Positions 901 to 7,413 are shown, counted from the first letter of the stretch. The stretch: DNA of 23,256 bases from Deltaproteobacteria bacterium (GCA_029553375.1 JAKPCH010000020.1:1-23256); one strand, 5' to 3'. Notes: generated from the sequence alone by a model not told the origin. Program-made: numbers and translations.

Positions 901-2082
901 ATGTCAAACCATCCCTCCCTATACCGGACCGCCGTCCTCTTCCTTTGCCTGGCGGCGGCCCTCTTTGCGGCGCCGGCCCGGGGCCAGGGGGCCCAAGAGG
1001 CGCCGACGACGGCCAAGGTGCGGGTCCTCATCCTCCCCCTTTCCGGGACCCCGCCGCGCGTGGGCTGGGCCAAGCCCCACGGGATCTTCCGGCGCGACAC
1101 CATCGCCGCCGTCTCCCGCATCCTCCTCGACCAGGGGTTCTTCGAGGTGGTGCCCGACGAGGAGGTCGTCGCGGCGGGGGGCGGGGAAGACATACCCCCG
1201 TGGAGGTGGCTCCAAGATGACCTGGACCTGGTGAAGCGGGTCGGCCGGGCCGTCCGGGCCGACTTCGCCGTCGTCAACACCAGGGAGTTCATCCAGGGGC
1301 ACAACTACCGGTCCCAGGTGATCTGCCTCAACCTCTGGACGGGGAAGAAATTCACCGACTCCTACATGATCGCCCCCTCCACCTCACCGGAGGCCTTCGG
1401 GGAGGAGAACCGGAAGGCCTTCCGGCGGTATTACCGGAAGCTGTTCCAGGAGGCGAAGGCGGACCTCCTGAAGATCAGCCTCCGCAAGGCCGAGTCCCTG
1501 GCGGCGGCCAAACCGGGGCTTCAGGCGGAGCGGGCGGCGGTAGCGAGGGAGGACCTGCTGGGGGAGACGAAACTGCCAGGGGGTCTGCCGGAGGACGCGT
1601 TTCTGGAGGCGGAGCCGCAGCCCCGCCCCGCGAGGAAGGGCGCGGGGGAGATCGCGCCCCTCCGCAAAGGGGCCCGGGCGGGGAAAACGAGGATCGTGGT
1701 CTACGATTTCGCCTCCCCGGAAAACCTGAGCGTCCCCTCCCTGATCCTCACGGAGGCCCTCAGGGAAGAACTCCTCAAGCGGGGCGACTTCGTCCTCGTC
1801 AACAGGGAGGACCTGGGAAGGCTGGCGGGGGAGATGAAGGTCCAGCAGTCGGGGATGATCGACGAAAAGCAGGCCGTGCGCCTCGGGAAGGGCCTCGCGG
1901 CCGCCGAGGCCGTCACGGGCAGGCTCCACACCCTGGGCAACACCTACATCCTCCAGGCGAAGAGGACGGACATCGAGACGATGGGGACCCTCTCCATCGG
2001 TTCCCTTAAGTGTCCCGTCGGCCGGGAGGAGGAACTCCTCGCCCAGATGCCCCTCCTGGCGAAGAAACTGGCGGGGGACTAG
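901..2082 (+). CDS. Secreted/periplasmic protein with a C-terminal CsgG / LpoB-like (TolB-N-like) domain
   Basis: RBS AGGAAAGG then ATG 901. N-terminal signal peptide (LFLCLAAALFAAPARG-QG). The C-terminal region RIVVYDFASPENLSVPSLILTEALREELLKRGDFVLVNREDLGRLAGEMKVQQSGMIDEKQAVRLGKGLAAAEAVTGRLHTLGNTYILQAKRTDIETMG matches the pattern conserved in CsgG and LpoB N-domains (…AVLPF.N..G………L.EL…….F.VVER..L..VL.EQ.LQ.SG.VD…AV.IGK.LGA.Y.VTG.V…G…………TG). Confidence 0.65.
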   Translation: MSNHPSLYRTAVLFLCLAAALFAAPARGQGAQEAPTTAKVRVLILPLSGTPPRVGWAKPHGIFRRDTIAAVSRILLDQGFFEVVPDEEVVAAGGGEDIPPWRWLQDDLDLVKRVGRAVRADFAVVNTREFIQGHNYRSQVICLNLWTGKKFTDSYMIAPSTSPEAFGEENRKAFRRYYRKLFQEAKADLLKISLRKAESLAAAKPGLQAERAAVAREDLLGETKLPGGLPEDAFLEAEPQPRPARKGAGEIAPLRKGARAGKTRIVVYDFASPENLSVPSLILTEALREELLKRGDFVLVNREDLGRLAGEMKVQQSGMIDEKQAVRLGKGLAAAEAVTGRLHTLGNTYILQAKRTDIETMGTLSIGSLKCPVGREEELLAQMPLLAKKLAGD

Positions 2083-2727: not shown

Positions 2728-3462
2728 CTACAACTTCATGATGAGGGTGTGCTCCCGGCCCGTGTCGGCCTCCTTGAGGCGCAGCCTCAGCTCGGCGGGC
2801 TTCTTGGCCTCGCCGGGGAAGAAGATGAAACCGTGGGCGATCTCGCCGGGCTTCACGGAACGGCGGTCGAGGGACCGCCTCTCCAGGTCCGCCCTGATCC
2901 GCTCCTGGACGTCCCGGTCGCTCAGGCCCTTGGCGCCCCCCATGGTGATCCCCGTGGCGGCGCCGATGGCCGCCCCTTTCATGACGGCGTCCCCGACGTT
3001 GTGACCGGAGACGATGCCGATCGCCGCCCCGATGACGCCCCCGGCGATGCCCGCCAGGCCGCCGTACTTGGCCGCCTCGGGCGCCACCTTCCCGAACTCC
3101 GTCTTCTTGTGGATGCGGTCATAGGCCATCCCCTCGTCGAGGACGGGCCAGAGGTTGCCCTCGACGTCGATGAGGAAGGTCTGGGAGGCCACGATGTCCA
3201 GGGGGTGGGGGCCCTTGTTGTCGAAGACGACCCGCACGGGGATGATACCCGCCTCGACCATGTCGAACCCGAAGGCCTTCTGGGCCTCCGACCCCTCGGC
3301 GTAACCCTGGGCCGCCACCACCGCCCCGGCGACCTCCCGGGCGTTGGGATAGGCCGAGGGCATCTTGAAGGGCACGACGGTGGGCTCGTAGGTGGCACAG
3401 GCGCCCACCAGGATCAGGAAAGACAGCAGGGCCGTCAGGCTGAGGCATCTCTTCCGCATCAT
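2728..3462 (-). CDS. Lipoprotein with a glycine-zipper (SlyB / 17-kDa-antigen-like) membrane segment
   Basis: Start ATGATG at 3462 (minus) with RBS GGGAGAAGGGG. Signal peptide MMRKRCLSLTALLSFLILVGAC with lipobox LVGA-C. Gly-zipper GGLAGIAGGVIGAAIGIVSG…GAAIGAATGITMGGAKG. The longer track ORF (to 3687) has no RBS and adds a low-complexity N-terminal extension. Confidence 0.75.
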   Translation of the reverse strand: MMRKRCLSLTALLSFLILVGACATYEPTVVPFKMPSAYPNAREVAGAVVAAQGYAEGSEAQKAFGFDMVEAGIIPVRVVFDNKGPHPLDIVASQTFLIDVEGNLWPVLDEGMAYDRIHKKTEFGKVAPEAAKYGGLAGIAGGVIGAAIGIVSGHNVGDAVMKGAAIGAATGITMGGAKGLSDRDVQERIRADLERRSLDRRSVKPGEIAHGFIFFPGEAKKPAELRLRLKEADTGREHTLIMKL

Positions 3463-3710
3463 ATCCCCTTCTCCCAGGTTTTTCGTCATCCTAAAGGACA
3501 AAGGACAAATAGTCAACCGGCGCGACAGGGCCCCCCGCGTCGCCCCCGGCCCGGGCCCGGAGGGGGTCGGACCCCGGAAACGGGGGCAAAACGGACCTTG
3601 ACGCGGGGTGACGAGGCCCCTAAAATGAAGCGGCCGGGTCGGAGGAAAACAGGGGGCCATTGTTGTACCATTTCCCCTTTCCGGCAAAATTTCCTCGGAG
3701 GTGGCAAGAG

Positions 3711-4478
3711 ATGAAGAAGGTTTGCATCGTCGTGACGATGGTCCTGTTCATCGTGGCGGCCCGTGCCGGTATGGCCCAGGGGCAGGACGGTTGGGTCCAA
3801 TTCAAGGGTTTCAAGTACAGACTGACCACCGTGGAGGGGACCTGGTCGGAGGCCGAGGCCGAGGCCATCCGTCACGGCGGCCACCTGGCGACGATCAACT
3901 CCCGGGAGGAGAACGACTGGCTCGTCAGGACCTTCGGCAACGACAAGAGCTTCTGGATCGGCTTCTACCAGCCCGCCGGGTCCCAGGAACCGGCCGGGGG
4001 CTGGCGCTGGGTGAGCGGCGAGAGGGTGGTCTACACCAACTGGGACGGCGGTCAGCCCGACAACTACACGGGCCGGGACAACTACGCCATGCTCCTGAGC
4101 GGCGCCGGGGGCCGGTGGCACGACGTCCCCCTGGAGGGCTGGCCCATGACCTCCCGGTTCCGGGGGATCATCAAGGTCAAGGCCGAGCTCGAATGCGCCG
4201 TCTTCAGGGGAGTTGAGTACTGTCTCACCCCCTCCGAGGGCGACTGGAACCAGGCCGAGGCCGAGGCCATCCGTCACGGCGGCCACCTGGCGACGATCAA
4301 CTCCCGGGAGGAGAACGACTGGCTCATCAGGACCTTCGGCAACGACAAGAGCTTCTGGATCGGCTTCTACCAGCCCGCCGGGTCCCAGGAACCGGCCGGG
4401 GGCTGGCGCTGGGTGAGCGGCGAGACGGCGGTCAGCCCGACAACTACACGGGCCGGGACAACTACGCCATGCTTTTGA
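3711..4478 (+). CDS. Secreted tandem C-type-lectin-like domain (CTLD) protein; second domain truncated by a frameshift
   Basis: RBS GGAGGTGG then ATG 3711. Signal peptide MKKVCIVVTMVLFIVAARAGMA. Domain 1 (about 3790-4190) has the CTLD hallmarks WIGFYQ…WRWVSGE…YTNWDGGQPDN…YAML…GRWHDVP (QPD and W-H/N-D motifs) but no cysteines. Domain 2 (from about 4200) is a near-identical nucleotide duplicate. It lacks 22 bp (GGGTGGTCTACACCAACTGGGA) present in domain 1, so the frame shifts and terminates at TGA 4476-4478. Confidence 0.75.
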   Translation: MKKVCIVVTMVLFIVAARAGMAQGQDGWVQFKGFKYRLTTVEGTWSEAEAEAIRHGGHLATINSREENDWLVRTFGNDKSFWIGFYQPAGSQEPAGGWRWVSGERVVYTNWDGGQPDNYTGRDNYAMLLSGAGGRWHDVPLEGWPMTSRFRGIIKVKAELECAVFRGVEYCLTPSEGDWNQAEAEAIRHGGHLATINSREENDWLIRTFGNDKSFWIGFYQPAGSQEPAGGWRWVSGETAVSPTTTRAGTTTPCF

Positions 4479-4578
4479 GCGGCGCCGGGGGCCGGTGGCA
4501 TGACGTCCCCCTGGAGGGCTGGCCCATGACCTCCCGGTTCCGGGGGATCATGAAATTGAAATAGGGGGCGCGAGATGT
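4367..4578 (+). repeat. Direct repeat copy A (3' end of CTLD gene plus TAGGGGGCGCG junction)
   Basis: About 80-85% identical to 7414..7581. Both copies carry the same deletion junction GGCG(A/G)GACGGCGGTCAGCCCGAC. Both end …CCCATGACCTCCCG(G/T)TTCCGGGGG(A/G)TCATGAA(A/G)TT(G/C)AAATAGGGGGCGCG followed by an ATG. Confidence 0.7.
4426..4564 (+). pseudogene. Out-of-frame C-terminal remainder of the second CTLD repeat
   Basis: After the 22-bp deletion junction (about 4425/4426) the original CTLD reading frame continues intact (…GGQPDNYTGRDNYAMLLSGAGGRWHDVPLEGWPMTSRFRGIMKLK) to TAG 4562-4564. This frame differs from that of 3711..4478. Confidence 0.6.
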
Positions 4579-5840
4579 ACTGGGAAAGACTTTCGCGGGA
4601 AGAGATCAGAAGACGGGTCGCCATCGCCATCGACGGCAATGTAAACTACCACACCGACGCCGTCTTGGGTTTTCCCGGCACGCACCTCGACGCCGAGGAT
4701 TATTATGCCGACGGCTGCTCCGTCCTCACCAGGATCCCCTGGGCGTCTCCCCTCCTCGACGACGAGCCCTTTCTCAGGACCATCATCGAGAACCCCAACC
4801 ACATCGGCTGCCACACCGCCGCGGAGTCGGAGGTGGGCTTCCCCGGCACCCAGGCCCTCGAACGGGAGGCCCTGGCCATCTGCGCCGAGGAGATCATGGG
4901 CGCCCCCGCGGGCGCCTATGACGGCTACATCTCGCCGGGGGGAACGGAAAGCAACATCCAGGCCTGCTGGGTCCTGCGCAATCTCCTCCGCCGCACCCAC
5001 GCGGCCCGGCCGGGTGAGGTCGGCCTCGTCTTTTCCTCCGACACCCATTACTCCCTTTGGAAGGCCGCCGACCTCCTCGGTCTTCGTCCCTATCCCGTCC
5101 CCGTCTCCGACACGACGAGGGAGATGGGGGCAGACGCCGCGCACGCAACCGTGGCAGCCGCCGTGAGGGACGGCGTTCGTTGTGTCATCGGGGTGGTCAA
5201 CATGGGCACAACCATGTTCGGATCCATCGATGACCTCGACGTCCTCGTCGCGGCCTTCGAGGAACACAACCTCCCCTTCTACCTCCATGTGGACGGCGCC
5301 TTCGGCGGTTTCATCTACCCCTTCGTCGTCCCCGACCACCCCCTCGATTTCCGCAACCCCCTCATCGCCTCCATCACCATGGACGCCCACAAGATGCTCA
5401 AGGCCCCCTACGGCACGGGCATCTTCCTCTGCCGCAAGGGCCTCATCGACGAGGTCTGCACGACCCAGGCGAGCTATGTCCACGGGAAGGACTACACCGT
5501 CTGCGGCAGCCGGTCGGGTGCCAACGCCGTCGCCGTCTGGATGCTCCTGCGCGACGCGGGCTCCGAGGGGCACACGGACCGCTGCCGCCGTCTCGTGGAG
5601 CGGACCGACCGTTTCTGCAGCCGTCTCGACGCCATGGGCGTCGCCTATTACCGCCACCCGGCGATGAACCAGGTCGCCATCAGGGCCGAGTACGTCCCCC
5701 CGGAGACGGCGCGGCGCTTTCTCCTCGTCCCCGACCGCCACGACGACACGCCCCGGTGGTGGAAGATCATCGTCATGGACCACGTCCGGGATGCCCTCCT
5801 CGAATATCTCCTGGAGGAAATAGGGGAACAAAATACCTAG
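4575..5840 (+). CDS. PLP-dependent group II amino-acid decarboxylase (MfnA / tyrosine-aspartate-glutamate decarboxylase-like)
   Basis: ATG 4575 with G-rich RBS (AGGGGG). Family motifs ISPGGTESNI, HVDGAFGGF and SITMDAHKM (PLP-binding lysine) match the MfnA-type decarboxylase pattern SGGTEANL / HVDAAFGG / S.T.DPHK. Confidence 0.8.
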   Translation: MYWERLSREEIRRRVAIAIDGNVNYHTDAVLGFPGTHLDAEDYYADGCSVLTRIPWASPLLDDEPFLRTIIENPNHIGCHTAAESEVGFPGTQALEREALAICAEEIMGAPAGAYDGYISPGGTESNIQACWVLRNLLRRTHAARPGEVGLVFSSDTHYSLWKAADLLGLRPYPVPVSDTTREMGADAAHATVAAAVRDGVRCVIGVVNMGTTMFGSIDDLDVLVAAFEEHNLPFYLHVDGAFGGFIYPFVVPDHPLDFRNPLIASITMDAHKMLKAPYGTGIFLCRKGLIDEVCTTQASYVHGKDYTVCGSRSGANAVAVWMLLRDAGSEGHTDRCRRLVERTDRFCSRLDAMGVAYYRHPAMNQVAIRAEYVPPETARRFLLVPDRHDDTPRWWKIIVMDHVRDALLEYLLEEIGEQNT

Positions 5841-6131
5841 GCAATTTCTAACATTTTGTTTCACATTTTAAGGTTGCCTTATGGACTTAAAAGCTTATTA
5901 TGATTTGGTCAGCAGCGAGAGGAAGGCTCGAAAATATCGGCCGGGAACGGCTTCAGCCTGATGTGCTGCGGATATCGGCACCTGAAGGGGGCGGTCCCTT
6001 CTGTATCTGAAAGAACTCGAGCTCCGGCATCATAACCGTGGCTCGGACATCTTTGACCTCGTAGCCTGCTGCCTCTGTGATTTGAGGTTCAGGCATCCGA
6101 CGACGGACCGTCATTCGGAGGGGGAAACGGT
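5841..6131. other. AT-rich (about 45-50% GC) spacer of atypical composition
   Basis: GC content drops sharply relative to the flanking genes. Contains a stem AGGCAA…TTGCCT just after the decarboxylase stop and runs such as TTTGTTTCACATTTTAAGG. Only a 53-codon antisense ORF (5953-6114) is present. Confidence 0.5.
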
Positions 6132-7310: not shown

Positions 7311-7413
7311 AACAGGTCTTGTCGTCTTGTCTCATGGCCGCCACGGGGGGACGACGAAAAGCGAAGAAAAGTTGATTCGACCGTATCACGCCGGTTCGTG
7401 CGTGAAAACCGGA

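Follow-up and report, generated by a model that had tools for sequence, protein, structure and literature searches.

Organization of the lectin locus

The stretch of DNA analysed here, which we refer to as the window, is a contig of 23 256 nucleotides (nt) from a Deltaproteobacteria bacterium (GCA_029553375.1, JAKPCH010000020.1:1-23256). It carries a gene for a secreted protein with two C-type lectin-like domains (CTLDs), hereafter the lectin, in which the second domain is interrupted by a gap of 22 base pairs (bp) (Table 1). The lectin ATG at 3711 lies behind a GGAGG box and opens a frame of 255 codons that ends with TGA at 4476-4478. Pfam Lectin_C matches this open reading frame (ORF) in two stretches (80.5 bits against a cut-off of 22.6), in agreement with an earlier reading made from the sequence alone (the original prediction), which had described a tandem CTLD protein with a QPD motif. 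The 255-residue product is identical to protein P0126, which falls into one 90% cluster with the intact protein P0124 described below; an exact look-up of the product returned no record as a called gene. The signal peptide has no lipobox in its sequence, and in the model of the intact two-domain P0124 a helix at residues 3-19 precedes the domain, which fits a signal peptide.

Table 1. Features of the lectin locus, in window coordinates
Feature	Position	Strand	Remarks
Promoter-like site TTGACG-17-TAAAAT	3598..3626	+	Consensus scan, 10/12 matches; consensus match only
Lectin ORF as in this contig	3711..4478	+	255 residues = 238 native + 17 out-of-frame residues, then TGA
Sec-type signal peptide MKKVCIVVTMVLFIVAARAGMA	3711..3776	+	Read from the sequence; cleavage site inferred
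CTLD 1, intact	3786..4181	+	Pfam E = 1.7e-12; WIGF 82-85, QPD 115-117, D123, WHD 136-138
Homogenized core, repeat unit 1	3851..4170	+	98-99% identical to unit-2 core
CTLD 2, N-terminal two-thirds only (residues 162-238)	4194..4424	+	Alignment of copy 2 to copy 1
Homogenized core, repeat unit 2	4253..4550	+	22 nt shorter here; alignment to unit 1
22 bp gap junction GGCGA/GACGG	4423..4424	+	After 4423; 2 nt microhomology (GA)
Displaced 3' end of CTLD 2	4424..4564	+	46 codons in the +1 frame, plus TAG 4562-4564; QPD and WHD, now untranslated
PLP-dependent decarboxylase	4575..5840	+	Pfam Pyridoxal_deC
Third, decayed CTLD fragment (remnant)	7331..7586	+	blastn; tblastn E = 2e-16; spacer between the CMAS methyltransferase and YeeE-like genes

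The two domains are encoded by tandem repeat units (copies 1 and 2). Direct repeats at 3801-4031 and 4203-4433 are spaced by 402 nt and those at 4044-4174 and 4424-4554 by 380 nt, a difference of 22 nt that arises because there is a single gap in copy 2; global alignment of the two copies gives this one gap, of 22 nt. The missing bases correspond to 4022-4043 of copy 1, GAGGGTGGTCTACACCAACTGG, and to the codons RVVYTNW, so that the original prediction was right about the gap and wrong about its codons, which it had given as YTNWDG. From 4424 onwards the +1 frame reads DGGQPDNYTGRDNYAMLLSGAGGRWHDVPLEGWPMTSRFRGIMKLK, a flawless lectin-domain end, and then TAG. The alignment and the reading of the ORF thus bear out both that the second domain is frameshifted by the gap, with the frame ending at 4478, and that the remaining codons are preserved in another frame up to the TAG ending at 4564. 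At the amino-acid level the displaced 46 codons are identical to residues 246-291 of intact P0124 and, compared with intact orthologues from the same population, 53 native C-terminal residues are lost. The distance from the lectin ATG to the ATG of the decarboxylase gene that follows is 864 bp in the window and 886 bp in six related loci (L001-L006).

The similarity between units 1 and 2 is mosaic: a core of 320 nt is 98-99% identical, identity is only ∼55% over the initial ∼80 nt of each unit and the 3' ends have diverged, with the identity shifting abruptly at 3851 and 4170. The description of the second domain as an almost exact nucleotide copy therefore holds for the core and fails for the first ∼80 nt. 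The accompanying claim that the duplication is recent is not supported by this comparison, as near-identity that is confined to a sharply bounded core is a signature of homogenization; on the pattern of identity, it indicates gene conversion and not merely a recent duplication.

Rescue of the second domain by a programmed frameshift was considered and rejected from the sequence. It is the +1 frame that encodes the 3' end of the domain. A single site looks slippery, UGC UUU UGA at 4470-4478, but a ribosome would reach it only after mistranslating the QPD region, and slipping by +1 at this site would lead into the third frame. An internal start at ATG 4469 would yield only a 31-residue peptide, which has no significant family match.

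Fold and predicted sugar-binding site

In the canonical long-form CTLD a WIGL-type motif lies in β2, the long loop carries E/Q-P-D/N plus WND, and four conserved cysteines form the C1-C4 and C2-C3 disulfides (PMC6468738). Domain 1 of the lectin alone scores 48.5 bits with Lectin_C (cut-off 22.6), and 155 distinct CTLD chains among the PDB sequences match it at E ≤ 0.01, with a best single-domain E of ∼1e-12. The long-loop landmarks listed in the original prediction (WIGF, WRWVSGE, QPD and WHD) are all found. An AlphaFold2 model of domain 1, built from alignment A1 of 36 single-domain homologues, has a mean predicted local distance difference test (pLDDT) score of 94 and a predicted template-modelling (TM) score of 0.89, and its elements run in the order expected for a CTLD: β0, β1, α1, α2, β2 and β3-β5. 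According to Foldseek, all 50 of the PDB matches listed are CTLDs, with TM scores of about 0.8; the first is the carbohydrate-recognition domain (CRD) of the human macrophage galactose lectin (PDB entry 6py1; TM 0.79/0.84, r.m.s.d. 1.7 Å). The CTLD-like fold on which the original prediction had made its reading depend is thus supported, and by sequence profile and predicted fold domain 1 is a canonical long-form CTLD. The intact two-domain protein P0124 is modelled as two CTLDs with a pLDDT of 89.6. NCBIfam contains no family for the lectin.

The intact domains keep most of the pattern of the Ca2+ and sugar site, namely Q-P-D, N, D and W-H-D. The rule that links QPD to galactose (Gal) or N-acetylgalactosamine (GalNAc) comes from animal lectins. 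Glycan binding is a reasonable expectation from the motif pattern, and the normal product would be a bivalent, probably Ca2+-dependent glycan binder that is periplasmic or extracellular. In the window, CTLD 2 loses β3-β5 and the QPD/WHD site and that domain cannot fold; the truncated product is a monovalent lectin at best and unstable at worst.

Cysteines and bacterial relatives

The original prediction called the protein cysteine-free. This holds for the canonical positions: C1-C4 are occupied by residues other than Cys in both domains, so that the four-cysteine pattern of the family is absent, and the C1 and C2 columns contain Ala in the lectin both in the alignments with PDB CTLDs and in an alignment of 132 domains. 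It does not hold strictly, as domain 2 begins with two cysteines, C162 and C171, in ELECAVFRGVEYC. Further cysteines are C5 in the signal peptide and one in the frameshifted tail; the intact sequence has none after residue 171.

A homology search gave 827 proteins with E ≤ 0.001 among the candidates scored, and the named proteins among the 120 listed are bacterial. A column census was made on 132 near-full-length domains from 97 of the best homology matches. Cys occupies the C1 column in 11 of the 132 domains and the C2 column in three. The view that the lack of cysteines is unusual for the fold and rare in bacteria is not supported, given the 827 homologues and the absence of C1 and C2 from >90% of the 132 closest domains; judging from the census, the missing cysteines are a trait of the clade, not of this lectin gene alone. 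The WIG columns contain W in 105, I in 75 and G in 127 of the domains; the EPN/QPD columns contain E in 72 or Q in 37, P in 128 and N in 69 or D in 46; and the other site columns contain N in 92, E in 78 or D in 36, W in 129, N in 97 or H in ten, and D in 123.

The His variant WHD and the PLEGWP segment that follows it are common to P0002, P0004 and P0005 (52-66% identity), and P0005, a member of this nearest-relative sub-clade, is fused to an M48 peptidase domain. The homologues come from Planctomycetota, Phycisphaerae, Myxococcota, Verrucomicrobiota, Acidobacteria, Heliorestis and Glaciecola, and many have PEP-CTERM anchors. Many contain a single CTLD, and tandem two-CTLD relatives exist (for example P0003 and P0008). 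Literature searches for bacterial canonical CTLDs found nothing specific, and the PDB matches listed, 60 by sequence and 50 by fold, include none that is described as bacterial; cysteine-less canonical CTLDs are thus widespread in bacteria yet apparently experimentally uncharacterized.

Intact and variant alleles in the population

Restoring the 22 nt from copy 1 gives a protein of 291 residues that is identical, residue for residue, to P0124, and so yields the intact second domain that the original prediction had envisaged. Intact tandem homologues, for which it had proposed a search, are represented by P0124 itself; at least six independent contigs, from ENA and JGI, encode it, and its gene has the same neighbours on them. 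Apart from the gap, only two single-nucleotide polymorphisms (SNPs) separate the window from the intact allele L001. The flanks are 99.0-99.9% identical across all loci, which places them in one species-level population; NCBI labels the cluster members 'Syntrophales bacterium', and neither the junction nor the intact pattern was matched in the GTDB representative genomes.

Other structural alleles are present. L011 is an intact one-domain allele with a lectin gene of 484 bp, compared with 886 bp. Gene alleles with the 22 bp gap and an 18 bp deletion occur in five other assemblies: L007-L010, in which a 444 bp one-domain gene has a gap junction identical to that of the window, and L018, which is partial. 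The 18 bp gap lies between 9 nt direct repeats, GACAACTAC, and from these flanks could recur by slippage, unlike the 22 bp gap. The one-domain alleles L011 and L007-L010 are chimeras of a copy-1 5' end and a copy-2 3' end. In L011 the switch point falls inside a shared stretch of 59 nt, too short for a collapse at a k-mer length (k) of 141, and from its sequence the allele looks like a real unequal crossover. The L007-type alleles destroy their only CTLD, and null alleles are therefore tolerated in the population.

A C at position -15 (window 3696) is found only in the window, L007 and L008, which are all gap-bearing, and in none of the six gap-free alleles. The shared base links the window allele to the gap-bearing genes and is an independent hint that the allele is real. 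The junction with A as its last left-hand base (A-type, GGCGA/GACGG) occurs in ten contigs from several pipelines, and in copy 2 of a two-copy gene only in the window. Many assemblies break inside the repeat, and many proteins of the cluster are incomplete because their contig ends within them.

A decayed third repeat with the same gap

The fragment at 7331-7586 was found via two JGI contigs that carry the junction pattern 3 kb downstream of the gene. It is homologous to unit positions 83-404 and, as the lectin gene does, ends with GVMKFK and a stop codon followed by GGGGGCGCG. Its 5' part is ∼70-77% identical to the gene, with several insertions and deletions (indels), and its 3' part is ∼90% identical. 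It has the same 22 nt gap, with the junction GGCGG/GACGG (G-type) compared with GGCGA/GACGG in copy 2 of the window, and the left flank of its junction is fragment-specific (…CCGCTGCCAGCCCGCC). In the window the fragment also has an 18 nt gap between the GACAACTAC repeats and further indels.

In a census of all of the loci fetched, the 22 bp gap was present in the fragment of all 13 contigs that reach this position. Nine of the 13 fragments have a common form, with the G-type junction and the 18 bp gap, and the window's own fragment is one of these. The other four (L013, L014, L020 and L023) are mosaic: their 5' ∼96 nt are gene-like, with an A-type junction identical to that of the window and with the 18 nt present, and their 3' part is fragment-like. 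The original prediction overlooked the fragment and described the gap as a 22 bp deletion; a fragment with the same gap points instead to transfer between repeats.

Two further observations concern the region of the fragment. In contig Ga0208824_1002259 (L003/L012; L003 6870-6997) the lectin stop codon runs straight into post-fragment sequence, which skips the decarboxylase and methyltransferase genes. The two sequences have only 14 nt in common where they switch, and the join is either a real 3 kb deletion between repeats or a mis-join. The spacer at 7590-7955, between the fragment and the YeeE-like gene, is unusually long (∼365 nt) and has an AT-rich stretch in a contig that is otherwise GC-rich; it matched no Rfam family.

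Origin of the gap

We think it likely that the window holds an allele of a secreted two-CTLD lectin in which the gap was moved into copy 2 by exchange between repeats, and that this allele, with partial or complete loss of function, segregates beside the intact one. The normal product of the gene would be the 291-residue, Sec-secreted protein with two complete CTLDs. Three CTLD repeats (copy 1, copy 2 and the fragment 3 kb downstream) would trade sequence by non-allelic gene conversion and unequal crossing-over, which would hold the 320 nt core of copies 1 and 2 at ∼99% identity and would give rise to the one-domain alleles and the mosaic fragments. The gap, fixed in the fragment, would in this contig have moved into gene copy 2, and a plausible donor is a mosaic fragment, whose sequence near the junction matches that of the window exactly. 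Translation would then stop at 4478 after one intact CTLD, two-thirds of a second and 17 nonsense residues, and the effect of the truncation on phenotype would be a loss of function.

The marks of gene conversion are the shared 22 bp gap, the mosaic fragments and the sharp boundary in identity between core and flanks. As a 22 nt deletion with 2 nt of microhomology hardly recurs at one place, the gap in the fragment, in copy 2 of the window and in the L007-type genes is best taken as one lesion. Because this lesion is fixed in the fragment but varies among the gene alleles, parsimony favours its passage into the gene, with the fragment as the probable donor. Several points weigh against this account. 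Two copies with the gap in copy 2 only are found in a single assembly, that of the window. Copy 2 of the window received no remnant-type SNP together with the gap, and the junction base is A in the gene alleles and G in the common fragment. From the positions of these differences, a tract from a common-form fragment would have to be ≤15 nt and a longer tract would need a mosaic fragment as the donor; the mosaic form itself could have arisen only through patchy repair. With regard to the function that would be lost, the asparagine of WND is replaced by histidine (WHD).

A technical origin of the gap is also conceivable. If the gene in fact has two intact domains, a small-k assembler could have built into copy 2 junction reads that came from a mosaic fragment, either in this strain or in one that co-occurs with it; we consider this unlikely, albeit with an appreciable chance of being correct, and it counts against the account above. 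The mosaic fragments share with the gene 26 nt to the left and ∼70 nt to the right of the junction, such that a graph with k ≤ 26 would place a bubble on the gene path; seven of the ten decarboxylase contigs listed start inside the lectin gene and many partial proteins lie at contig ends, contig L003 jumps from the end of the gene into post-fragment sequence, and the configuration of the window was observed once only. However, the window resolves both copies, each with its own SNPs (among them CTTTTG in copy 2, 50 nt past the junction), the window's own fragment is of the common form and not mosaic, gap-bearing genes with gene-specific flanks are found in k = 141 MEGAHIT and JGI assemblies, and the C at -15 is common to the window and those genes. 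A simple assembly collapse of the tandem repeat was rejected, since the window resolves both copies and the 59 nt switch stretch of L011 is shorter than k = 141. A fresh 22 bp deletion in copy 2, by slippage or end-joining and unrelated to the fragment, appears very improbable. The 2 nt microhomology (GA) at the junction and the lack of remnant-type SNPs flanking the gap would suit it, but the fragments of 13 contigs and five other gene alleles have a gap of the same length that maps to within 1 nt of this position, independent recurrence with so little microhomology is very unlikely and the mosaic fragments show exchange across exactly that segment. A hairpin or repeat hotspot for recurrent deletion was looked for and rejected, the junction having only the 2 nt microhomology and no strong inverted repeat.

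The truncation might instead be tolerated or selected, leaving a working monovalent lectin with one CTLD; changes in copy number and reading frame would then serve as an adaptive switch, either on/off or between valencies. We regard this as rather unlikely. Domain 1 is complete and confidently modelled alone, L011 is a natural one-domain intact allele, many homologues have a single CTLD, several structural alleles coexist in a population that is >99% identical and copy 1 could template restoration of the gap. The five L007-type alleles nevertheless wreck their sole CTLD, which speaks for dispensability rather than tuning; there is no sign of reversibility, regulation or dedicated recombination machinery; and a misfolded two-thirds domain may destabilize the whole protein. 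A more elaborate form, in which the repeats act as a gene-conversion switch, with the fragment as a silent cassette that writes the frameshift, copy 1 writing the bases back and crossing-over setting a one- or two-domain valency, is a long shot. If it were true, an uncultured syntrophic anaerobe would have reversible, heritable on/off and valency control of a secreted glycan-binding protein, which could serve, for example, in escape from a phage or predator that uses the lectin or in altered aggregation with partner cells. Of the options that the original prediction left open, a real, recent inactivating allele, as in the repeat-exchange account preferred here, is the best supported, a truncated variant that still functions with one working CTLD is possible, and collapse of the assembly in its simple form does not fit, as both copies are resolved with copy-specific SNPs.

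Comparison with known systems

Transfer of a frameshifting gap between repeats has a textbook human counterpart in CYP21A2, which is inactivated by the nearby pseudogene CYP21A1P when it receives the 8 bp deletion of the latter, and the silent cassettes of the Neisseria pilE/pilS system use the same conversion mechanics. As in CYP21A2/CYP21A1P, a decayed paralogue a few kb away has a frameshifting gap that recurs in the functional copy, and mosaic alleles are seen. The lectin locus differs from both systems in having one short donor fragment, in showing no evidence of programmed or reversible switching and in that the direction of transfer is inferred; it also differs from CYP21A2/CYP21A1P in that the population data are metagenome contigs, not pedigrees or clones.

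With the long-form CRDs of animal C-type lectins (CLEC10A, PDB entry 6py1; langerin; CD23; the mannose-receptor family) the lectin shares Lectin_C, the fold (TM 0.79-0.84, r.m.s.d. 1.7-2.1 Å), the WIGx strand, a long loop with Q-P-D, a W-x-D motif and an acidic residue at the position equivalent to E193. Unlike them, it is without the C1-C4 disulfides, has WHD for WND and has an extra PLEGWP after WHD that is shared only with the nearest bacterial relatives; it is bacterial, with a Sec signal and no collagen, neck or transmembrane parts. It belongs with other bacterial Lectin_C proteins in a cysteine-poor clade (35-67% identity) with signal peptides, in which E/Q-P-N/D and W-N/H-D are kept, and it differs from them in the absence of a PEP-CTERM tail and in forming a QPD, WHD and PLEGWP sub-clade with P0002, P0004 and P0005. 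A CTLD-type fold is also found in bacteria in the variable proteins of diversity-generating retroelements; the annotated neighbours of the lectin gave no sign of a reverse transcriptase or a template repeat, for which no specific search was made. The terminal domains of intimin and invasin are compact CTLDs (PMC6468738). These proteins and the retroelement variable proteins are compact or divergent and are without the long-loop QPD/WND site, whereas the lectin matches the canonical family by sequence.

The lesion is an ordinary variant and not a new kind of protein. The appropriate annotation of the gene is a two-CTLD lectin with a known intact form, here in a frameshifted allele, and not a novel truncated protein. 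The locus is a natural example of repeat-driven structural polymorphism in a population that is >99% identical, and frameshifts inside repeats of metagenome-assembled genomes need checking at the level of reads. As cysteine-less bacterial CTLDs are apparently uncharacterized, a structure and glycan-array study of the 291-residue protein or of domain 1 would be informative.

Neighbouring genes

The neighbours of the lectin gene encode a pyridoxal phosphate (PLP) decarboxylase, a CMAS-type methyltransferase, YeeE/TusA, SelB and lipoproteins. The best NCBIfam matches of the decarboxylase (MfnA tyrosine decarboxylase and histidine decarboxylase) are below the model cut-offs. The decarboxylase gene starts 10 nt after the lectin stop codon of the intact allele and no terminator-like site was found in 3400-4700, so the two genes are probably co-transcribed; their synteny is conserved in all loci, and early termination of the lectin may have a mild polar effect on the decarboxylase. 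Beyond this probable co-transcription, no functional link between the lectin and its neighbours is supported. Rfam and tRNA scans of the window found nothing.

Some variation in the surroundings was noted in passing. A putative CsgG/LpoB-like lipoprotein gene at 901-2082 (+) has versions of 393 and 379 residues (window; L002-L005, L010 and L011), and contig similarity breaks ∼2.1 kb upstream of the lectin start, a second structural polymorphism nearby. In the spacer between the decarboxylase and methyltransferase genes (∼5858-5869), a 12 nt indel, TTTCACATTTTA, distinguishes the window, L001 and L007, which have these bases, from L002, L004, L009 and L011, which lack them. SNP haplotypes downstream of the lectin do not track the states of the lectin allele, a pattern that is suggestive of recombination or of consensus contigs that mix strains. 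At 7956-11839 (+) a YeeE/YedE-type sulfur or selenium transporter, a small TusA-like gene (seen in related loci) and SelB stand in a row, in what looks like a selenium-handling cluster unrelated to the lectin; at 11954-13168 (+) there follows a gene for a 404-residue protein with a C-terminal chagasin-type peptidase inhibitor (I42) domain.

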